Shown: one piece after another, positions 2,459-57,359 of the stretch
Layout: every line of letters starts with the position of its first letter
How positions within the stretch are numbered: position 1 is the stretch's first letter
Sequence record: OP555982.1
DNA: 64,000 nucleotides
Source of the DNA: Escherichia phage vB_EcoM-UFV11
Reading direction: 5' to 3' (one strand)
Translations under genes and position numbers: made by a program
Notes under the pieces: model-generated
Told to the model about the DNA's origin: nothing
Seen by the model: the letters and a program-made list of their open reading frames with translations, nothing else
Database searches by the model: none

Positions 2459-4274
2459 ACTGGCTCATCCATTCTTTACGAAGGTCAGCATTATCTCCCA
2501 TGAGCATTTCAAAAAGCTCTTTCCAATTCTCAGGAAGTTTAACAACATCATATACTGGGTTTTGAATCATCTCACGATATTCAGATTTTTCCAAAGAGCC
2601 AAGTCCTTTAATATAACGGATGCTATGTTTAGGTAGAGCATCTTTGGCACTCTCATATTCAGCGACTGTATAAAACCATTCTTGTTTTTTACCGACCTGA
2701 GCGATGATTACAGGAGTTTTGACAAAGCGAATTCGTCCTTGCTCAAACAATTCTGGCCAATTACTAAAAAATCCGAGCAGAGAAGGATAAATGCTTCCTA
2801 AACCATCATGGTCAGCATCGGTCATAATAGCAATATTATGATAATTCAAGTTTTCAGCTTTTTCACCAAGAACTAATCCAGTGATTGCGCAAATATCAAA
2901 CAGTTCTTTGTTTTTAAGCATATCAGCATATGACATACCCCAGCTATTAAGAACTTTACCACGCAATGGATAACCACCGTGAAGTTCTTTATCACGAACA
3001 TCAATAAGATATCCGATAGCAGAATCACCCTCAGTCAAGAAAAGAGTAGTGTCAGCATCTTTACCACAAAGATTCGCTTTGATATGTTTATGAACCTTAG
3101 CTTTAGAAGCCTTTTTAGCTGCTTTAGTTTCTGCTGCTTTTTCTGCCGCCAATTTACGAGCAAGGGCAGCTTCAATGATTGGCATTAAAATTGCTTCATT
3201 ATTTAGAATAGCGCGTGAAATCTTTTTAGCATCAAGTTGAATATGACTACGAATTTCGCCAAATGGAGAAGTCAAACGCTCTTTAGTTTGAGAATCAAAT
3301 CGCATGTTTTTCATATCACGGACAAACATAACGATAGTCAAACATTCTTTGACACGTGCTTTAGTCACATCAATTTTGAACTTACGTTTGATTTGTGGAA
3401 TAAGGTCTTCACAAATATCATCCATAACACAGTCAATGTGATGGCCACCATTCTTAGTGTGAATGTTATTCACATAAGTTAATTGACGAAATCCATCCGG
3501 TGAACGACCAACAGCAATAGAACAATTTTCTTGTTCTTGAACAATAGCATGTTCATCATACTGTCGTGCATATTTCTTAAAATTGCCCTGAACCTTTTTA
3601 CCATTAAAGGTAAATTGAATATCAGGATAAACAACAGCAAGTGTCTGGAGACGATCTAGTGTAATGTCAAGATAAACTTGGGACAGCTCATTAGTTTCAA
3701 ATGACATAAAATCTGGAATGAAAGTAACACGAGTTCCTTTCCATTTTCCAGGAATAGTTTCCCAGGATTTATTTTCCATGCCATTTGAACAACGAACTAC
3801 AATATTATTTTGACCATCGCCAGTTTCACCGACAAACATCACAGAAAAAATGTTAGTTAAACTAGAACCAACACCATTCATACCACCGGTGACGCGTTCT
3901 TTATCATCACCAAAGTTACCACCCGCTTTTGGAATAGTCCATGCAGCAACAGGACCAGGAATTTCTTCACCGGTAGGTGTTTTAACCATCGCTTGCGGAA
4001 TACCGCGACCGTTATCTTCAACTGTCACCTGATTATTTTTAATGGTAACATTAATTTTATTCGCGAATTTAAACTTAGTACGAATACCTTCATCGACTGA
4101 GTTATCGATAATTTCATCAATAAGCTTAACAAGACCAGGTACATACTGAACACTTTCCCATTTACCAAACAGAAAGCGCTCATGCATTTCATTAGCAGAA
4201 GAGCCAATGTACATGCCACTACGCTTTTTGATATGTTCAATATCGCTCAGAATTTTAATTTCATTCTTAATCAT
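2457..4274 (-). CDS. 39: DNA topoisomerase II large subunit, uninterrupted gene 39 form (605 aa)
   Basis: 606-codon ORF; first in-frame codon is GTG, ATG at 4272-4274 with SD GAGGA 6 nt upstream; N-term MIKNEIKILSDIEHIKKRSGMYIGS; GyrB-like motifs. Confidence 0.9.
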   Translation of the reverse strand: MIKNEIKILSDIEHIKKRSGMYIGSSANEMHERFLFGKWESVQYVPGLVKLIDEIIDNSVDEGIRTKFKFANKINVTIKNNQVTVEDNGRGIPQAMVKTPTGEEIPGPVAAWTIPKAGGNFGDDKERVTGGMNGVGSSLTNIFSVMFVGETGDGQNNIVVRCSNGMENKSWETIPGKWKGTRVTFIPDFMSFETNELSQVYLDITLDRLQTLAVVYPDIQFTFNGKKVQGNFKKYARQYDEHAIVQEQENCSIAVGRSPDGFRQLTYVNNIHTKNGGHHIDCVMDDICEDLIPQIKRKFKIDVTKARVKECLTIVMFVRDMKNMRFDSQTKERLTSPFGEIRSHIQLDAKKISRAILNNEAILMPIIEAALARKLAAEKAAETKAAKKASKAKVHKHIKANLCGKDADTTLFLTEGDSAIGYLIDVRDKELHGGYPLRGKVLNSWGMSYADMLKNKELFDICAITGLVLGEKAENLNYHNIAIMTDADHDGLGSIYPSLLGFFSNWPELFEQGRIRFVKTPVIIAQVGKKQEWFYTVAEYESAKDALPKHSIRYIKGLGSLEKSEYREMIQNPVYDVVKLPENWKELFEMLMGDNADLRKEWMSQ

Positions 4275-4613: not shown

Positions 4614-4984
4614 TTAAATTTAATGGCTTGAAGGAGACTAATAATTCTCAAACGGCTTCTTTCATCTTTAACTGTAAAAGAAAGAGGGTCGCCAGATTTC
4701 ATGGTAATAGTGCATTCAAAATCAAAATCTTCAGTGACTTCTTCGAAGAAGTCAAATTCTTCATCATAAATTAGAACACTACTTTGCAGACTGTGAAGAG
4801 TTTTTCCAGCATTTCTGCTAACTGCTGTACTAATCATTGTAACATTATGACCTTTCATATCTTCAACGATAAATTCACTAGTCAATATTACAGCATTAAT
4901 AGAACTATTCCTATTACTAACAGAAAGTAGAAATTTCTGTTCTTCACCTTCACGAATACGATATTTCTTACCAATTTTAAACAT
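4610..4984 (-). CDS. hypothetical protein
   Basis: 124-aa ORF, start overlaps stop of downstream gene. Confidence 0.55.
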   Translation of the reverse strand: MFKIGKKYRIREGEEQKFLLSVSNRNSSINAVILTSEFIVEDMKGHNVTMISTAVSRNAGKTLHSLQSSVLIYDEEFDFFEEVTEDFDFECTITMKSGDPLSFTVKDERSRLRIISLLQAIKFK

Positions 4985-4986
4985 AA

Positions 4987-5163
4987 TTACCCTTTAAGTA
5001 AATCGTAAAATCCACCATTCACATGCTTAGGAGCAGAAGGCCGACGAGTAGACAAACGATGACATTTAGGACAAACATCATTTTCTCGTTCAGAAATCTT
5101 TTTAATTTTTTCATATTCATGCCCGCAATCTTCGGATTGGCATTTATAATCATACATTGGCAT
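4987..5163 (-). CDS. small zinc-ribbon protein (FmdB-like CxxC...CPxC)
   Basis: 58-aa ORF MPMYDYKCQSEDCGHEYEK...CPKCH; ATG 3 nt after upstream stop. Confidence 0.45.
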   Translation of the reverse strand: MPMYDYKCQSEDCGHEYEKIKKISERENDVCPKCHRLSTRRPSAPKHVNGGFYDLLKG

Positions 5164-5165
5164 AA

Positions 5166-5591
5166 TTATTCCTTAAAATGGGCTTTCAGCATCTGATACA
5201 AAGACCACGCCTGTTCATTATTTTCAATAGTAACTTTCATGACCGGGAATTCTGTGAAATCTTCTATCTGTTCTTGCTCTTTCTCTTCCTGCTCTTGCTC
5301 TTCGGCTGCCTGGTATGGATTTTCCACTTCATCAAAGAACACAGCTTCGCTCGTTGAAAGCCAGATAAAATCTTCATCCAAAATATCTTTACCAGAAGAT
5401 AACGCCAATTTTCCACTAGATGTCACAAGTTTAGTAGGACGACCAAGATAGTCAATATCTGTAACTCTAAAAGGTTCCATACCAAGACGACGTGCATAAA
5501 TTCCGTTTTCAGTATGGTCCTTGATAAAATCTTCTTGAGCTTGTTTATTTTTAAATTGATACCATTTATTAACTTCAAATTTAATAGCCAT
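5166..5591 (-). CDS. hypothetical acidic protein
   Basis: 141-aa ORF with [12 protein letters not shown] acidic stretch. Confidence 0.55.
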
Positions 5592-5806
5592 TAATAAGTT
5601 TCCTTCCAGTAAGTTGTGCCATCTTCAGTAATTTCACGAAACACACCATAAATTGGTTGTTTATCACCAACTTTTTCGTACACATAAACCGAAGTCAAGT
5701 GAGTAAACTTAACGGTATGTTCCTTTTGAACCACTACCAAATCTGGATCAAATAATACATCTTCAAATTCGTCATTAGTGCAATTCTGAACAATTTTACG
5801 TTTCAT
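5591..5806 (-). CDS. hypothetical protein
   Basis: 71-aa ORF, translationally coupled. Confidence 0.5.
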
Positions 5807-5819
5807 TACAATTTCCTCA

Positions 5820-6089
5820 TTAATTGAACAGTGGAGCGATGCGTTTCAGAAGAGTAGCAGCACCTTTAGCGAATTTTACATCATGAAAAACAGTTTCTTC
5901 TTCCGTTACAACACGAGCTTTAATGTTTTCACAATCCCAATTTTTGCGAACAATCTTCAAAAGCTGCAGTAAATCTTTACATTCAACAATATCGATAACA
6001 CATCCACGAGAATCTTCCATTATCGCACGATAACCGTAAGCCATACCATAATCGTTGAAAGATTGCTCGATGATAATTAAGTTTTCCAT
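5820..6089 (-). CDS. hypothetical protein
   Basis: ORF track starts at TTG; ATG at 6089 preceded by conserved leader TTGGAGAATAAAATG. Confidence 0.5.
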   Translation of the reverse strand: MENLIIIEQSFNDYGMAYGYRAIMEDSRGCVIDIVECKDLLQLLKIVRKNWDCENIKARVVTEEETVFHDVKFAKGAATLLKRIAPLFN

Positions 6090-6186
6090 TTTATTCTCCA
6101 AGTTATTTTCTGTATCAGTAGTTGATATTGATATAGTACCATAATCAACTACTGATGTATATAGTTTTATGAAAAAATTTTAAACT

Positions 6187-6678
6187 TTATGCATAGCGAG
6201 CTTTGCTATAGTGTTTAATCCAACTTTCAGGAATGACTTTGTATGTTCCTAAATATACCGCGTTGTACAGCTTAACACCGTCTTCTACCCACTGATCAGT
6301 AATGTATGCACACATAGCGCGAGTACGGTTAACAACACCTTCCTCACCTTCAGTAAATTCGAATTCATAAGGAGCAACGAACTTGATAGCTTGACCGAGT
6401 TTCCACTTAAAGTCTACACCTACATGTGAAGTATCAATCGTTTCAATTCCTTTAGCAGGAACAGCTTTCAAAAACGCAGACTCAAGAAATTTCGCACGAA
6501 CATAGCCAAACTGAGGTTTAGACTTTCCATCTTTAGGAATGATACGCACTTTTACTTCAGAATCTTCATCTTTAACACCATGTTTAAGCTGAATGCTTAC
6601 AATTTCGACCAATTTTCCTGCTGCTTTAGAGCGGGATTTATCAGATACACGAGCTAATTCACCAATATTAATAATCAT
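6187..6678 (-). CDS. hypothetical early protein (MotB-like position), paralog of 6752-7186
   Basis: 163-aa ORF; C-terminal motif TDQWVEDGVKLYNAVY shared with next gene. Confidence 0.5.
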   Translation of the reverse strand: MIINIGELARVSDKSRSKAAGKLVEIVSIQLKHGVKDEDSEVKVRIIPKDGKSKPQFGYVRAKFLESAFLKAVPAKGIETIDTSHVGVDFKWKLGQAIKFVAPYEFEFTEGEEGVVNRTRAMCAYITDQWVEDGVKLYNAVYLGTYKVIPESWIKHYSKARYA

Positions 6679-51700: not shown

Positions 51701-52669
51701 TTATTTCAGAAGAGTAACCTCAGCGATTTCTTCCCAACCGTTTTTGTCGGTCATAATAAAGTCAGCAAGATAAAGAGCAGTACGCAGTGAAACATTGCGT
51801 AAACGATTAACATTGACTTTCATCCATGATAATGCTTTATAAGTTTCTTCATCAGAAAGACCGCGCTTTTGCATCATGTCAGTTGAAAGAATAACATCTT
51901 CAACCCTGACCATAATTTCTTCATTAGTGTGAACACCCAAATCCAAATAAACTGAGCGGGACACTAATGCTTGTAAATGTGGAGCAAGTTTAGTACCACG
52001 GTCTAATTCGCGGTCAATGTCAACGTTTGTGATAAAAACAATCGTTCCTTTAAATTCAAACTCACGCTCAATGCCTTTTTCTTCTAAGTAAGAAGATGCA
52101 GTGCTCCAGCAGACTTTACGGGTCTCTCCAGTGTCCAGAGCAGCTTTCAGAAGATTAAGAATGTCCATATCAGAGAAAACATCCACATCATCAATCAAAA
52201 GGACAGAATTCTCTTCACGATTATTCCAAAGCTGCTCATAAAGACCAATACCAGAGATTTTACCATTAATGCTTTTATATTCAATGTATCCAATATCATT
52301 TGCTTTATTTAAAGCTTTATCTAAAGAATACGTTTTACCAATACCCGCCGCACCAGAGATAATTAATGAACGAATGTTTCCGTTAATAATACCATTCGTC
52401 ATCATTCCCATAACATTAAATCTTTTATTAATGCGGGTTTTCATATCTTCATATGATTCTTTAACTTCTTCAACTTTTACACCATCATATGAAATGTCTG
52501 ATTTGTAAACCCAAACACCGCGACGTTTACCGTCAATTTCAACAAAAACTTTACCATCTCCTTGTGCATCTACTGGGGCATTATCAGGGAACCACTCACC
52601 TAAGAGTTCAAAAGTTCCAGAGATTTCTTTGCCAAAGTAGATACCCTTATTGATAGTTACAGTTTTCAT
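51701..52669 (-). CDS. P-loop NTPase (AAA-like)
   Basis: ATG at 52669 after leader GGAGAATAAAATG; Walker A GAAGIGKT, Walker B VLLIDDVD. Confidence 0.6.
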   Translation of the reverse strand: MKTVTINKGIYFGKEISGTFELLGEWFPDNAPVDAQGDGKVFVEIDGKRRGVWVYKSDISYDGVKVEEVKESYEDMKTRINKRFNVMGMMTNGIINGNIRSLIISGAAGIGKTYSLDKALNKANDIGYIEYKSINGKISGIGLYEQLWNNREENSVLLIDDVDVFSDMDILNLLKAALDTGETRKVCWSTASSYLEEKGIEREFEFKGTIVFITNVDIDRELDRGTKLAPHLQALVSRSVYLDLGVHTNEEIMVRVEDVILSTDMMQKRGLSDEETYKALSWMKVNVNRLRNVSLRTALYLADFIMTDKNGWEEIAEVTLLK

Positions 52670-52703
52670 TTTATTCTCCAAATCCGTATCAGTTGATAGT
52701 TGT

Positions 52704-52733
52704 ATAGTACCATAAAGCTTTATGCTTGTAAAC
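52704..52733 (-). promoter_or_regulatory. T4-type early promoter with conserved leader
   Basis: minus strand GTTTACAAGCATAAAGCTTTATGGTACTAT. Confidence 0.55.
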
Positions 52734-52764
52734 TGTTTTGTGAAAAAATTTTTGAAATAAAAAA

Positions 52765-52782
52765 GGGAGCCCGAAGGCTCCC
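52765..52782 (-). terminator. hairpin GGGAGCC-UUCG-GGCUCCC plus U-run
   Basis: 7-bp stem, UUCG loop, TTTTTT after it on minus strand. Confidence 0.6.
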
Positions 52783-52784
52783 TA

Positions 52785-53798
52785 TCATTTATAATAACTT
52801 CGGTGGTTTTCAAGATAGACCTTCTCAAGGAAGTCATCCCAGAAACCCATGTCTACTTTTTGCTGCATACCGTTCTTAGAAGCTTCAGTAGATGCTGCTT
52901 CTACTTGATCGACCACATCTTCCAAAAACTCTTGAACTGTTTTAAATGGATGTTTACCCAACTTCACGTCGAGAATAAATGGAGCGTCTTGAAGTGGATA
53001 AACTAAGTCACCAGTTTTGTAAATTTCCAATAGTTGAAGTCCACCACGACAGGCATGGCTCAGAGCTTTCCAGTCAATACCTTCATTGGCTTCGGCCTTA
53101 CGAGCACGTTCACCATATTCAGCATCTAATTTGTTCAGTGACTGCTTAAGCTCAATAAGAGAAAGCGTTGTCTGATATTTACGACCCAACACAGTGTAGA
53201 ACGTTTGTGGGCCTGTTTTCTCATGATTATGGAACACCCATTCACAGAATTCGTTTTCTGGAAGACGATGCTTAATATCTTCAATTTTAGTGCGACGTTG
53301 TCCTTGTGTTCCATCTTCTCGGTAGACATTCCGTTGATCAGGAATTTGATTAACTACTTTCAACACATCACGTAATGCAGCCAAACGAGAACCCTTGACA
53401 CCGTATTTAGAAGCTTGCTTGCGAACATATCCTAAATAGGATTTCATGTTAGTCGTATAAAAACGAGAACGATTGTCTTGAATAAACTTCCACACATCAG
53501 GCAAATCAGATTTAACCACTAGTTCAGGTGGAGTGTGAAGCATATCCAATGCTACAGTTTCACCATCTGCTGCTAATTTAAAGAAATACTTAAGACTATA
53601 CAATTCGTGGTCAATATCATCTTTAGTGTTTTTAGATGATGTGTTGTTAGTGTTTTTACTCATGTGCTCTTTGACATTTCCAATAAGAATATCGCGAGCA
53701 GGAGGAACAAAGATTTCTTTAAAATCTACATCAGATTCTGGAGTAGAAGTTCCATAAAGATGACTACCAAAATAGCTTTTCATTACTGTTTTCATCAT
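52785..53798 (-). CDS. putative polymerase-beta-type nucleotidyltransferase
   Basis: 337-aa ORF; N-terminal GS-x11-DVD motif (GSHLYGTSTPESDVDF), later acidic residue near LDMLH, helical C-terminal domain. Confidence 0.5.
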   Translation of the reverse strand: MMKTVMKSYFGSHLYGTSTPESDVDFKEIFVPPARDILIGNVKEHMSKNTNNTSSKNTKDDIDHELYSLKYFFKLAADGETVALDMLHTPPELVVKSDLPDVWKFIQDNRSRFYTTNMKSYLGYVRKQASKYGVKGSRLAALRDVLKVVNQIPDQRNVYREDGTQGQRRTKIEDIKHRLPENEFCEWVFHNHEKTGPQTFYTVLGRKYQTTLSLIELKQSLNKLDAEYGERARKAEANEGIDWKALSHACRGGLQLLEIYKTGDLVYPLQDAPFILDVKLGKHPFKTVQEFLEDVVDQVEAASTEASKNGMQQKVDMGFWDDFLEKVYLENHRSYYK

Positions 53799-54256
53799 TC
53801 AGCCTTATATTCAATAACAGGACATACTTTAGCTTTACGGGCTTTTAAAAATTCGACGATAATAGATTTCTTGGGTTGAATAGGAGGTAAACCTTTATAC
53901 GCCCTATCAATATTTTCTACATGTAAAGCATAATCCTTTTTCCATTTATAATCTTTATATTTTTCATGCAGTTGTGCAGGAATAACAAATGAACCAATAA
54001 TAAGTAAAACAAGCAAAATGGCAAGTATAAATGCCGATGGAATAAGAGTCCATAAACTACCAAAAATAAGCCATTTCTGTATGATTTCTGCGCAGATAAT
54101 AGTTAGACCTGCGAGTATAGTACATCCGAAAAAAGAAACGAAAAATGTAGGGATAACAATAGACCAAAAGTATGCACACAGTGTCTTAGGTCGTTTCCAT
54201 TCGTCGTTAAACAGTTTGAATAATTTATAGTGCCAAGAGTTTTCATTAATAATCAT
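53795..54256 (-). CDS. hypothetical multi-pass membrane protein
   Basis: 153-aa ORF with ~3 TM segments; stop overlaps nucleotidyltransferase ATG (ATGA). Confidence 0.55.
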   Translation of the reverse strand: MIINENSWHYKLFKLFNDEWKRPKTLCAYFWSIVIPTFFVSFFGCTILAGLTIICAEIIQKWLIFGSLWTLIPSAFILAILLVLLIIGSFVIPAQLHEKYKDYKWKKDYALHVENIDRAYKGLPPIQPKKSIIVEFLKARKAKVCPVIEYKAE

Positions 54257-54258
54257 AA

Positions 54259-54780
54259 TTATCCTTTCATTGAAGGTGTAACAGTTGTTAAATACTTAAT
54301 CATAGCTTCAGCTTCTGATTTTGATAATGAAATTTCTCCATTGTTTTGACGAATAGAAATAAAATCCGGATGACGGTCACCACCAGCTTTTAAAACACAC
54401 ATATAAGTATCAGTTTCATCTTCAATATCTGAAATGATTGAAGCAGTTCCGCATGAATGTGGTTTTTGATAAATCAATACAGCTTTTCTTCCACCATTTG
54501 ACTGTTCATAGGCTTTTAATACATCAAACAAATCAGTTCTTTTATCAATAGCTAAAATGTTATTTTCATCTTCAATGTTAAATCCTTCGGATACTTCATA
54601 AAGTGTTACCCATAAATCACCGATGTCAATAACAGCATTTCCTTTTCCACGACTTTCAAGAATATGACAAATTTTCTTTATTTCGTCATAACTCATTTTA
54701 ATAATATCATCTCCTTGAATAAGGAAGATGTCATTTTTAAATTTAACGCGAATTAAACCGCTTTCACTAGAAATAAACAT
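54259..54780 (-). CDS. hypothetical protein, paralog of 54787-55344
   Basis: 173-aa ORF; C-terminal SIRQ...EAEAMIKYLTTVTPSM matches neighbour. Confidence 0.5.
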   Translation of the reverse strand: MFISSESGLIRVKFKNDIFLIQGDDIIKMSYDEIKKICHILESRGKGNAVIDIGDLWVTLYEVSEGFNIEDENNILAIDKRTDLFDVLKAYEQSNGGRKAVLIYQKPHSCGTASIISDIEDETDTYMCVLKAGGDRHPDFISIRQNNGEISLSKSEAEAMIKYLTTVTPSMKG

Positions 54781-54786
54781 ATTTCC

Positions 54787-55344
54787 TCACTTTGAAATCA
54801 TAGTTGGAATAACAGAATCAAGATAAGTTTTTAGTGCAATAGCTTCGTCTTTGTTTAATGTAATGATATGTGATCGAAAATCGTCAATTTGACGAATAGA
54901 TACTACATCTCCCTCTTCATAGCATTTTGAAACATTTAAAATAGTTTCATCATTCTGATTACAGGAGTTAGTAATAATAGCATTACATTTTTTAAACCAT
55001 TTTAAATTATGTTTTCTTTTAGTAGAATCATAAAAATATTTAATGTTAGTTATAAAATTATCCCAATTATTAATTGATAAGCACATTGACTCGCTTTTAA
55101 TATTAAATCCTGGGCATGAAGAATAAAAATGAATTTTATGCTCATCATTAATGCTTACAATTTTATCAGTGTAAGCATATTCAATTTGGGTTAAACGAAC
55201 AATTTCACTAGGCGTAAAATATAACATGTCGTCTTCTTGCGTCAAACGATACATGTTATTTACTTTTTCGATCGCTAATTCACCAAAAAGCACACTATCT
55301 TCTAATACTAATCGTTTCATATTGATTCTCTTCGACTCACTCAC
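54787..55344 (-). CDS. hypothetical protein, paralog of 54259-54780
   Basis: 185-aa ORF; GTG start with SD GAGGAG. Confidence 0.5.
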   Translation of the reverse strand: MSESKRINMKRLVLEDSVLFGELAIEKVNNMYRLTQEDDMLYFTPSEIVRLTQIEYAYTDKIVSINDEHKIHFYSSCPGFNIKSESMCLSINNWDNFITNIKYFYDSTKRKHNLKWFKKCNAIITNSCNQNDETILNVSKCYEEGDVVSIRQIDDFRSHIITLNKDEAIALKTYLDSVIPTMISK

Positions 55345-55478
55345 AATTACATACTCCTCTGAATCATATCAATAATGTTGTTCACCAGATTATAAGTAAA
55401 CATTGGGTAATTATATTGAATCATCACATACACAACAAACAAAACTTTCATTCTCTTCTCCTTGGCAGTTGACAAGAT

Positions 55479-55509
55479 TACTATACCATAACCTTGCCAA
55501 CTTGTAAAC
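55479..55509 (-). promoter_or_regulatory. T4-type early promoter
   Basis: minus strand GTTTACAAGTTGGCAAGGTTATGGTATAGT. Confidence 0.5.
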
Positions 55510-55511
55510 CA

Positions 55512-55784
55512 TTAAATGACGTTTTCAATAAAATTCTGAAGCTTTGTGTGAGCATCAACCATGATTTTCATTTCTTCTTTGGCGAAAGCTGTACCTCTTT
55601 CCCGAGAAGAACACTCATAGTCAGAAACTGCATTAGCATATTCTTCAATTAGTTTCATTAAAAACATCTGCTTTTCAGTTTTCATTATTCCACCTAATCC
55701 CCGAGAAGAACACTCATAGTCAGAAACTGCATTAGCATATTCTTCAATTAGTTTCATTAAAAACATCTGCTTTTCAGTTTTCAT
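55512..55784 (-). CDS. hypothetical protein with internal 33-aa tandem duplication
   Basis: 90-aa ORF; MKTEKQMFLMKLIEEYANAVSDYECSSR occurs twice. Confidence 0.5.
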   Translation of the reverse strand: MKTEKQMFLMKLIEEYANAVSDYECSSRGLGGIMKTEKQMFLMKLIEEYANAVSDYECSSRERGTAFAKEEMKIMVDAHTKLQNFIENVI

Positions 55785-55798
55785 TATTCCACCTAATC
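55601..55798 (-). repeat. perfect 99-bp tandem direct duplication (2 copies)
   Basis: 55601-55699 identical to 55700-55798; each copy carries SD GGTGGA plus ATG. Confidence 0.85.
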
Positions 55799-55968
55799 AT
55801 TTCAAGATATTGAACTAACTTAGCTTTAGATTTATCCAAATCCTTTTTAGCTGCTTCTATACCGTCGTATGAATATCCTTCACAATGCTCAACTGCTAAT
55901 TGATATGAATCTATTTCAACATCACGTGCTAATTTAATGATTTTTTCAAACTGTTCGTGTGTCAGCAT
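55774..55968 (-). CDS. hypothetical protein
   Basis: 64-aa ORF. Confidence 0.45.
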   Translation of the reverse strand: MLTHEQFEKIIKLARDVEIDSYQLAVEHCEGYSYDGIEAAKKDLDKSKAKLVQYLEMIRWNNEN

Positions 55969-55970
55969 AC

Positions 55971-56174
55971 TTAAACTCTCGTATTGTGATCGATAATTTC
56001 ATCAAGAAACATATCTAAAGCTTCCACAGCATTATCAACTTTAGCTTCAAGTTCATCAATACCTTTATTTGCAATGCCTGACGAAAACCAAGCAAAGTCG
56101 CTAAGTTCCTCATCTGCTTTACGAATTAAAGCTACCAATTCCTTAATTTTATCCGCTTGTTCGATACTAATCAT
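55971..56174 (-). CDS. hypothetical protein
   Basis: ATG at 56174 with SD GGTGGA, overlaps upstream stop. Confidence 0.45.
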   Translation of the reverse strand: MISIEQADKIKELVALIRKADEELSDFAWFSSGIANKGIDELEAKVDNAVEALDMFLDEIIDHNTRV

Positions 56175-56362
56175 TATTCCACCACATATGAAAGAGAGAA
56201 TATTGCACATGCCATGTGAGTTGCAACTTCATCACACATATTATAACGTTTCTTAAGAAGTTCTACAAGTTTTTCACTAGTAACTTCATCCATGTTGACG
56301 AAAAAATCACCATTAATGATGACGTAGATATTTCCTTCTTGATTGAGTGCTTCAATTTTCAT
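56174..56362 (-). CDS. hypothetical protein
   Basis: ATG at 56362 with SD GAGGAG; ORF-track start lies within promoter. Confidence 0.45.
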
Positions 56363-56390
56363 GATGTTCTCCTCTTTATCCGATAGTTGT

Positions 56391-56420
56391 ATAGTATAAC
56401 AGCTCAAACGGAAAGTAAAC
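56391..56420 (-). promoter_or_regulatory. T4-type early promoter
   Basis: minus strand GTTTACTTTCCGTTTGAGCTGTTATACTAT. Confidence 0.5.
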
Positions 56421-56435
56421 CGGTAAAATGAAAAA

Positions 56436-56453
56436 AGTCTCCCGAAGGAGACT
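56436..56453 (-). terminator. hairpin AGUCUCC-UUCG-GGAGACU plus U-run
   Basis: 7-bp stem with UUCG loop; same cassette layout as 15047-15112. Confidence 0.6.
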
Positions 56454-56457
56454 AATG

Positions 56458-56844
56458 TTATTCGAGGGAAAGAAGATACTTACTCTGGTAAAACATCCCA
56501 GTAATATCATCTATCGTGCTTTGGATGGCTGGAGGCATTTCTTTATAAATGCTGTTAGATTGGTCTAGTATGCGATCAATCATTTTAATTGTGTCGGTAG
56601 GAAGTTTACTGGCATCTGGAATTGAAGGCGTGTATTTTCTACCAGAATACCCCAAATATTGCTCACCAAATTTATCAATCAAATCTGGCAACTCGGAAAA
56701 AATAAAATCGTATGCTTTGTGTCTAGCATAACTTTTAGTTTCAAAATGTGCAGAATGAAAATAAGCTTGTGCAGCCATTAATAAACCTAAGTATTCATCT
56801 GCCTTTGAAGGTTTTCCACTTTGTGAAAAGTCGCTGAATTTCAT
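56458..56844 (-). CDS. hypothetical protein (rI.-1 position)
   Basis: 128-aa ORF translationally coupled to rI. Confidence 0.55.
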
Positions 56845-57134
56845 TCAGTCTCCAATTTAATGTTCATAATTCTAGCGTATGATTGTGCCATCTCCGCGCC
56901 TCGTTCTATACATTCAAAATCAGAAGAGCACGGGTCATTTTTATAGGTCGTTCTCATAAAACTATAGAATTGTTCAGACGATTCTACGCTTTTATTTTCA
57001 AAAAGTGTATAAACGTGCCTAATACCAGATTCCATAAATTTATCAAAATGAGGATCGACATTCGCTTCAATTGATGGAGATAAAACAAATGACAATCCTA
57101 GCATGGCAAAAAGTGCCGTTGCTTTTAAGGCCAT
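56841..57134 (-). CDS. rI: lysis inhibition regulator RI (97 aa)
   Basis: 97-aa ORF MALKATALFAMLGLSFVLSPSIEA with N-terminal signal-anchor. Confidence 0.9.
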   Translation of the reverse strand: MALKATALFAMLGLSFVLSPSIEANVDPHFDKFMESGIRHVYTLFENKSVESSEQFYSFMRTTYKNDPCSSDFECIERGAEMAQSYARIMNIKLETE

Positions 57135-57146
57135 AAAGGCCTCCTA

Positions 57147-57359
57147 TCATTTTTGTCCTGTATTTACTTTATGCCGATGCACGGCCTTAACTTTATCAAG
57201 GTATTTTTCAAAATTTCGCAATCTAGTATAGTCTGCCGGAGATTGGTTGAGTGATACTTCTCGACGCAAAGCTGAAATGATATTTCCAACTTCCCTACGA
57301 ATTTCATCTAATTGAAGCACAGTAAGATTGCGAAGTTGCTTTTCAGTTAATTGTAGCAT
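57147..57359 (-). CDS. hypothetical protein (rI.1 position)
   Basis: 70-aa ORF. Confidence 0.5.

Follow-up and report, generated by a model that had tools for sequence, protein, structure and literature searches.

NrdC.11 of a Tequatrovirus early transcription unit is a probable RlaP-branch RNA 3'-end nucleotidyltransferase

RloC-type anticodon nucleases excise a nucleotide, defeating simple religation. The RlaP family, reportedly named by Burroughs and Aravind after its linkage to RNA ligases, is the family to which we assign the product of nrdC.11, a gene in a 64,000-nucleotide stretch of Escherichia phage vB_EcoM-UFV11 (OP555982.1; this whole stretch is called the window below). Phage RlaPs have been predicted to restore RloC-removed nucleotides ahead of ligation (Iyer et al. 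2021, PMC7824862), and the RlaPs of Pseudomonas fluorescens and P. aeruginosa have been studied in a preprint by Carruthers, Fatma and Huang (2025, bioRxiv; PMC12776372). According to that study, the two Pseudomonas enzymes add one or two nucleoside monophosphates onto RNA 3'-OH ends, preferring Mn2+ and leaving DNA and protein (E. coli proteins) unmodified; given a cleaved-tRNA mimic, they act preferentially on its broken end, and they partly restore aminoacylation of a tRNA lacking one anticodon-loop nucleotide. When total RNA is supplied, rRNA and tRNA, the latter both full-length and cleaved, become labelled by bacterial RlaPs with any nucleoside triphosphate (NTP; PMC12776372). The crystal structure of PfRlaP reveals an N-terminal nucleotidyltransferase domain and a helical C-terminal domain with a basic RNA cleft, the C-terminal helix packing onto the N-domain, and T4 NrdC.11 was itself placed in the family, within network cluster 5 and separate from cluster 1a (PMC12776372). 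The gene has been recognised as a nucleotidyltransferase since 2006, RefSeq annotates it likewise, and our literature searches on nrdC.11 and mobD.1 brought up genome-annotation, homing-endonuclease and genome-reduction papers only, with no functional study among them.

Our analysis suggests that NrdC.11 is probably an RNA 3'-end nucleotidyltransferase of the RlaP branch, serving accessory counter-defence tRNA repair from within a five-gene early unit. Judged by its sequence, the protein is a catalytically intact RlaP-branch pol-beta nucleotidyltransferase. It matches the Pfam RlaP model (PF10127) with 44.1 bits (gathering score 23, E 2.7e-11), and its only other nucleotidyltransferase match in Pfam is a sub-threshold one to NTP_transf_2; PHROG 388 is annotated as 'nucleotidyltransferase', and all NrdC.11 homologs among the matches listed carry a precomputed PF10127 match. 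Compared with T4 NrdC.11 (NP_049709, 'nucleotidyltransferase'), it is 95.5% identical over 337 residues, lies likewise upstream of nrdC.10 and has a matching promoter and terminator layout; the difference lies directly upstream, where T4 has mobD and the window has a 153-residue membrane protein preceded by a paralog of MobD.1. An earlier, sequence-only reading of the window had proposed a pol-beta-type nucleotidyltransferase whose C-terminal domain is helical. Pfam, an alignment of homologs and a structural model bear this out and show the active site to be intact. T-even and many other T4-like phages share nrdC.11 as a conserved gene with an assigned family, which, for the enzyme, goes most of the way to an outcome that the sequence-only reading had named as refuting it: nrdC.11 occurs in 1564 phage records, covering phages of Escherichia, Klebsiella, Aeromonas, Acinetobacter, Vibrio and Sinorhizobium, and its homologs make up 3443 cluster representatives (50%-identity clusters) at E 0.001 or better.

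The active-site residues are conserved across 108 NrdC.11 homologs (27–97% identity). G11, S22, D23 and D25 are invariant, and conservation reaches 90% or more at S12, D61, D63 and D85. The motif previously read as GS-x11-DVD is present, with its spacing corrected to G11-S12-x10-D23-V24-D25. When aligned to canonical RlaP with hhalign, D23, D25 and D63 pair with the invariant D39, D41 and D72, and G11-S12 with G27-S28, while D85 stands opposite a conserved Glu. Since D63 pairs with an invariant Asp and D85 with a Glu, the third catalytic carboxylate is probably D63; the acidic residue about 60 positions downstream of the motif, which the sequence-only reading had pointed to, is conserved as D85 but is not the one aligned with the third catalytic Asp. 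Basic residues are also conserved in the helical half of the protein (K131, K135, R138, R231, K244, H248 and R251), and this set of Lys, Arg and His side chains would suit an RNA cleft with positive charge such as that of PfRlaP.

The AlphaFold2 model of NrdC.11 (predicted local distance difference test, pLDDT, 92.2) contains an alpha/beta N-domain, a beta-rich insert at residues ~152–212 and a helical C-terminal half. The insert corresponds to window positions 53163–53345 and lies between helical segments. Canonical RlaPs appear to be without it, because they are 70–80 residues shorter and do not align past the N-terminal core. A profile built from the 108 homologs and compared with solved structures matched ribosomal protein S6 only, at the insert and non-significantly (E 0.03 or worse), and the NrdC.11 sequence gave no match when searched against all solved structures. 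All values from a Foldseek search of the model against the PDB were weaker than 1e-3, the best being about 1e-2, with a terminal uridylyltransferase (TUT7) at a probability of 0.11 only. Among the fold matches listed there was no cGAS, DncV or OAS, no CCA-adding enzyme and no canonical poly(A) polymerase; a cGAS/DncV/OAS-like fold, in which a pol-beta core carries the characteristic helical spine and C-terminal domain, was not recognised in NrdC.11. At the sequence level, no PADLOC family of cGAS/DncV-like nucleotidyltransferases (CD-NTases), cGAS or OAS was matched at E up to 1, nor were Pfam SMODS, Mab-21 or OAS1_C. The proposed resemblance to OAS, cGAS, CD-NTases or poly(A)-polymerase-like enzymes was therefore not borne out by these searches. 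Kanamycin nucleotidyltransferase, ANT(4') and 3c18-type nucleotidyltransferases are among the known systems closest to NrdC.11. We consider it quite improbable, however, that small molecules or proteins are its acceptors, as they are for the antibiotic nucleotidyltransferases ANT/KNTase/LinB or the DrrA/GlnE AMPylases: the fold scores are moderate and generic for the pol-beta fold, its sequence family is RlaP, characterised RlaPs left E. coli proteins and DNA unmodified, and the neighbours of bacterial homologs are RNA-repair, not resistance, genes.

These neighbours provide the genomic link to RNA repair. In a scan of bacterial and archaeal genomes, 80 loci encode full-length NrdC.11 homologs with 33–54% identity. 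Directly beside bacterial homologs we observed genes for Pnkp (locus L146), a kinase-phosphatase-Rnl1-type ligase fusion (L116), RtcB (L143), Hen1 (L098) and a Ro/TROVE protein (L078), and over the 280 nearest neighbours as a whole RtcA, RtcB, Pnkp-ligase and Hen1 turn up repeatedly. The RNA-repair association of the T4-type bacterial homologs is real but partial. On the phage side, a 437-kb phage-like contig carries an RNA ligase 6 kb upstream of its nrdC.11 homolog, and pseT is found, along with a gene for an RNA ligase as long as that of T4 rnlA, in the genome of Escherichia phage vB_EcoM-UFV09, whose DNA is identical here (see below).

A second, canonical RlaP (254–268 residues) accounts for 10 of the 144 immediate neighbours of bacterial NrdC.11-like genes and lies directly downstream in four identified loci (L072, L087, L123 and L137). 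The two RlaP clades therefore often stand in tandem, a hint that their roles may differ and complement each other. NrdC.11 resembles canonical RlaPs in that it passes the Pfam model, its GS/DxD/D core aligns, its AlphaFold2 model joins an N-terminal nucleotidyltransferase to a helical C-terminal domain, and some of its T4-type bacterial homologs are also found beside RtcB, Pnkp, Hen1 and Rnl1-type ligase genes. It differs from them in being ~70–80 residues longer than the 254–268-residue proteins, in belonging to a separate clade and in having no ligase operon link in this phage.

The chemistry by itself would equally serve an enzyme that tails RNA 3' ends for host takeover, either by tagging host tRNAs or mRNAs or by rebuilding tRNA 3'-CCA ends, as bacterial RlaPs accept rRNA and both full-length and cleaved tRNA with any NTP. 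The early expression of nrdC.11, predicted from its T4 early-type promoter, and the absence of linkage to pseT and rnlA in the phage genome would suit such a role. We nevertheless consider tailing unlikely: RNA-repair genes recur beside the bacterial homologs, the broken end is what the bacterial enzyme prefers when offered a cleaved-tRNA mimic, and no data point to a role in tailing or decay.

Several observations weigh against a role of NrdC.11 in RNA repair or against its close kinship with canonical RlaPs. Addition to RNA 3'-OH ends has been measured for two Pseudomonas RlaPs, both outside the T4-type clade (PMC12776372), and the solved structures that we searched did not include PfRlaP. 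The majority of bacterial homolog loci have unrelated neighbours, and in the UFV09 genome nrdC.11 lies ~79–81 kb from pseT and rnlA, in a separate operon. The PF10127 alignment covers the catalytic core only (residues 7–135 against model positions 23–142 of 249), and the hhalign match to canonical RlaP is likewise limited to the N-terminal core, with 92 columns at 60% probability. The C-terminal half with its beta-rich insert could not be aligned to canonical RlaP, and phmmer comparison of NrdC.11 with the neighbouring canonical RlaPs gave no match, so that profile methods were needed; the substrate specificity of NrdC.11 could therefore differ. T4 grown on laboratory hosts also tolerates a deletion spanning nrdC.11 to mobD.3 (PMC9825161), which fits an accessory role and proves nothing.

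Taking both sides together, we infer that T4-type enzymes add nucleotides to RNA 3' ends, act on tRNA and cooperate with Pnkp and Rnl1. NrdC.11 would add one or two nucleotides, untemplated, to damaged RNA 3' ends; its likely substrates would be tRNA 5' halves with ends that RloC or other host anticodon nucleases had trimmed. After this addition, phage Pnkp (pseT) and RNA ligase 1 (rnlA) could reseal a functional tRNA. The suggestion in the sequence-only reading that the enzyme might act in anti-defence or RNA modification comes close to this RlaP repair role.

The 153-residue protein encoded directly upstream of nrdC.11 is a small, predicted inner-membrane protein. Its hydropathy profile contains long hydrophobic segments at residues ~26–56 and 63–93, and its N- and C-termini are basic. 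Because the two hydrophobic stretches lie between basic termini, the simplest reading is a protein with two predicted transmembrane helices and both ends inside, although three helices are possible; the earlier description as a membrane protein stands, with its three transmembrane segments now less favoured than two. Homologs from four other genera share invariant SWH..K and P..LC.YFW motifs at the N-terminus and KA.K.K.CP at the C-terminus, so that both predicted cytoplasmic ends carry conserved motifs, and with identities down to ~24% the family extends to 931 phage records.

The membrane gene directly adjoins nrdC.11 in Tequatrovirus, Mosigvirus and Dhakavirus, including phages RB69 and IME08. 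Full-length homologs of the membrane protein are encoded at 45 IMG/VR loci: at 13 of these the gene is directly adjacent to nrdC.11, at 21 a gap of 0.4–1.25 kb separates the two, and about 10 are without detectable nrdC.11 within 5 kb; in two such loci the neighbouring open reading frames (ORFs) gave no nucleotidyltransferase match in Pfam. Three genes stand between the two in annotated Jiaodavirus and Winklervirus genomes, and distant nrdC.11 homologs, including those of phiKp_32 and phiM7, have soluble, acidic upstream neighbours. As T4, T2 and the neighbours of distant homologs all depart from the pairing, we regard it as conserved synteny and not an obligate pair.

This distribution bears directly on the idea that NrdC.11 signals to the membrane protein through nucleotides or oligonucleotides. 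The enzyme would produce an oligonucleotide, cyclic or linear, by which the membrane protein is gated or activated, similar to cyclic-oligonucleotide-based anti-phage signalling systems (CBASS) or to Hailong HalB/HalA, or NrdC.11 would be a HalB mimic that keeps a host Hailong channel closed. The membrane gene stop overlaps the nrdC.11 start, and direct adjacency is retained in the three genera above even though their membrane proteins are only 31–51% identical. Adjacency alone is weak evidence, however, because gene order in T4-like phages is generally conserved. Neither PADLOC nor profile comparison with solved structures revealed sequence likeness to HalB or any CD-NTase, and cGAS, DncV and OAS were not among the listed fold matches. 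Furthermore, nrdC.11 is kept in T4 without the membrane gene and in T2 with a fragmented one; one to three unrelated genes intervene in Jiaodavirus, Winklervirus and 21 of 34 IMG/VR loci; ~10 divergent membrane-gene loci have no detectable nucleotidyltransferase within 5 kb (Pfam-checked ORFs in two); and the phiKp_32 and phiM7 homologs follow acidic soluble proteins. The obligate effector pairing of CD-NTase systems is accordingly not seen here, the membrane gene being replaced in T4, fragmented in T2 and separated in several genera. We therefore judge a signalling pair very improbable, and the signalling or abortive-infection module raised by the sequence-only reading is disfavoured by the same facts, namely an intact nrdC.11 in T4 and T2 without an intact membrane gene, and a pair that is separated in several genera.

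A precedent for such a pair is Hailong, in which HalB (PDB 9dbh), a nucleotidyltransferase synthesising oligodeoxyadenylate, is paired with the HalA membrane channel. HalB resembles NrdC.11 at the level of fold and not of sequence, and at 217 residues it is without most of the C-terminal domain. HalA forms a tetrameric channel with a cytoplasmic crown, whereas the neighbour here, 153 residues long, is predicted to cross the membrane about twice, matched no family and is dispensable in T4 and T2. One could still imagine a functional unit made of the MobD.1 C-domain gene, the membrane protein and NrdC.11, acting as a membrane-anchored module for RNA repair or oligonucleotide synthesis, or as a HalB mimic whose oligonucleotides keep host Hailong-type channels closed; its membrane component would have been secondarily lost in the T4 and T2 laboratory lineages. 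This proposal, the chances of which we hold to be slim in the extreme, is based on the conserved order, on the translational coupling seen in three genera of the Tevenvirinae and on the fact that the solved fold closest to NrdC.11 is that of HalB.

Comparison with T4 and T2 shows how the region upstream of nrdC.11 varies. In T4, the gene between mobD.1 and nrdC.11 is mobD, an HNH homing endonuclease gene (Edgell et al. 2010). Homology between the window and T4 ends exactly at the nrdC.11 start (53799) and returns at 54762, the T4 side being 56449–57258, so that an 808-bp T4 mobD cassette replaces 962 bp encoding the paralog and the membrane protein. This agrees with the earlier placement of the operon in the nrdC–rI region, the site of mobD in T4. 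A mobD gene with at least 95% identity is found in ~47 records, and the mobD state is about nine times rarer than the window arrangement among sequenced phages. The arrangement with paralog and membrane protein is the common Tequatrovirus state and the T4 mobD state is rare; the T4 arrangement is most likely derived. In T2 (NC_054931; regions 3093–3578 and 4716–6257), frame breaks split the genes for MobD.1, the paralog and the membrane protein alike, which makes them likely pseudogenes, and nrdC.11 is intact (97%). T2 also has an extra 'RNA polymerase ADP-ribosylase' gene between nrdC.11 and nrdC.10, of which there is none in the window.

Upstream of the membrane gene lie two related proteins. 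The 185-residue protein is 98% identical to T4 MobD.1 and matches Pfam T4_y05I_N (1.2e-41, 141.8 bits) and T4_y05I_C (6.9e-21, 74.8 bits); the 173-residue protein matches the same two models with 109.3 and 82.7 bits, and both proteins pass both cutoffs (PF24449 and PF24448; 24.9 and 27 bits). The two are indeed paralogous, as had been noticed, but their similarity is not confined to a shared C-terminus: they are homologous over their full length, with 26% identity over 164 columns (E 1e-9). The 173-residue paralog is absent from T4 and occurs in 468 phage records, nearly all Tequatrovirus-like, 433 of them at 80% identity or more. Pfam labels the two domains as 'y05I-like putative transcription factor'. 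The AlphaFold2 model of the paralog is poor (pLDDT 60), with residues 10–100 alone moderately confident, and a fold search with it gave non-significant matches only (domains of unknown function and SsgA-like proteins, E 0.08–0.18).

Jiaodavirus and Winklervirus encode, directly upstream of the membrane gene, a protein of ~75 residues that is related to MobD.1 and the paralog in their C-terminal domain only. In these genera (L008 2774–2998 and L009 2777–3001), the adjacency of this small gene to the membrane gene is more tightly conserved than that of the membrane gene to nrdC.11. A metagenomic protein of 179 residues (P0381) is a natural chimera, with an N-terminal half like MobD.1 and a C-terminal half like the 173-residue paralog, which suggests recombination or deletion between tandem paralogs.

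Bases 52700–55600 share 100% DNA identity with Escherichia phage vB_EcoM-UFV09 (Tequatrovirus) and three sister isolates, and ~95–97% with many other Tequatrovirus genomes. The region is the Tequatrovirus early transcription unit mobD.2, mobD.1, mobD.1 paralog, membrane protein and nrdC.11 (Table 1), an ordinary early cluster of a T4-like coliphage in which nrdC.11 is an already known gene. Four minus-strand ORFs, a promoter and a terminator had been called before, and all are found where they were placed. The unit comprises five genes and not four, because the ORF of mobD.2, omitted earlier, sits between the promoter and MobD.1; its product is 94% identical to T4 mobD.2 and 100% to T2 mobD.2. 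The four genes upstream of nrdC.11 are probably co-transcribed accessory genes, syntenic with it but not obligate partners. None of the five proteins had a match in PADLOC, and NCBIfam gave no match above threshold. Plus-strand ORFs in the region are short and overlap minus-strand genes, and we treated them as spurious.

Table 1 Features of the nrdC.11 transcription unit (window coordinates).
Feature	Coordinates	Strand	Size	Basis
T4 early-type promoter	55480-55509	minus		GTTTACA-17-TATAGT with TG extension; predicted from sequence
mobD.2 ortholog	55347-55451	minus	34 aa	AAGGAG ribosome-binding site; first gene after promoter
MobD.1 ortholog	54787-55344	minus	185 aa (GTG start) or 177 aa (ATG at 55320)	phrog_1502
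Divergent MobD.1 paralog	54259-54780	minus	173 aa	T4_y05I_N and T4_y05I_C
Membrane protein	53795-54256	minus	153 aa	phrog_944 'membrane protein' 4.7e-50; hydropathy
nrdC.11 ortholog, RlaP-family pol-beta nucleotidyltransferase	52785-53798	minus	337 aa	PF10127; phrog_388 3.6e-136
Intrinsic terminator	52764-52783	minus		8-bp stem (6 GC pairs), UUCG loop, then TTTTTTATTT (T-run)

The signals at both ends support an early-type unit, as had been proposed. The predicted promoter opens with GTTTAC, the T4 early-promoter signature, and its site (TTTACA-17-TATAGT with the TG extension) reached the joint top score, 10 of 12, in a sigma-70-like scan of 5.5 kb. In the 96% identical phage SA21RB, another group has annotated both sites, one as a T4 early promoter and the other as a rho-independent terminator. 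The terminator hairpin starts directly after the nrdC.11 stop codon. Inside the unit there are no MotA-box (middle) or TATAAATA (late) promoter motifs, and internal sigma-70-like sites occur at chance level (27 observed against 21.7 +/- 4.4 expected). Rfam gave no match above gathering score in 52000–56500. At the junctions, the membrane gene stop and the nrdC.11 start share ATGA, and further upstream the gaps are 2 nt and then 6 nt.

Directly past the nrdC.11 terminator lies a T4 early-type promoter-like site (52733–52704) belonging to nrdC.10 (322 residues, 51701–52669, minus strand), the product of which has sub-threshold matches only, to AAA_14, nSTAND3 and AAA_22 (AAA/STAND NTPase). On the other side of the unit, 99 bp are duplicated in tandem without a mismatch at 55601–55798 (2.0 copies, 100% match), where the minus-strand ORF 55512–55784 lies. 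The repeat is in frame, so that codons 1–33 of the MobD.2a ORF occur twice and the product has 90 residues. The duplication is absent from the otherwise identical MZ291552.2 and from 12 of the 12 best public relatives (a 551-nt query aligning to 452 nt), and it could be a real recent event or an assembly or version difference. Name-borne annotation errors are spread across GenBank records, including MZ291552.2: nrdC.3 to nrdC.11 are called 'thioredoxin' in RAST-annotated records, and mobD.4 is called 'molybdopterin-guanine dinucleotide biosynthesis protein MobD' in RefSeq.

The idea that the T4 tRNA-repair pathway has a missing third enzyme, and that NrdC.11 is this enzyme, has already been proposed by others. 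Our analysis adds that T4-type full-length bacterial homologs, and not canonical RlaPs alone, adjoin Pnkp, Rnl1-type, RtcB and Hen1 genes; that a paralog and a membrane protein upstream of nrdC.11 are the common Tequatrovirus state; and that little speaks for a signalling module. If the proposed role is correct, NrdC.11 would fill the place of a missing third enzyme in the classic T4 Pnkp/Rnl1 tRNA-repair pathway, and this would explain how T-even phages could counter nucleotide-excising anticodon nucleases such as RloC.

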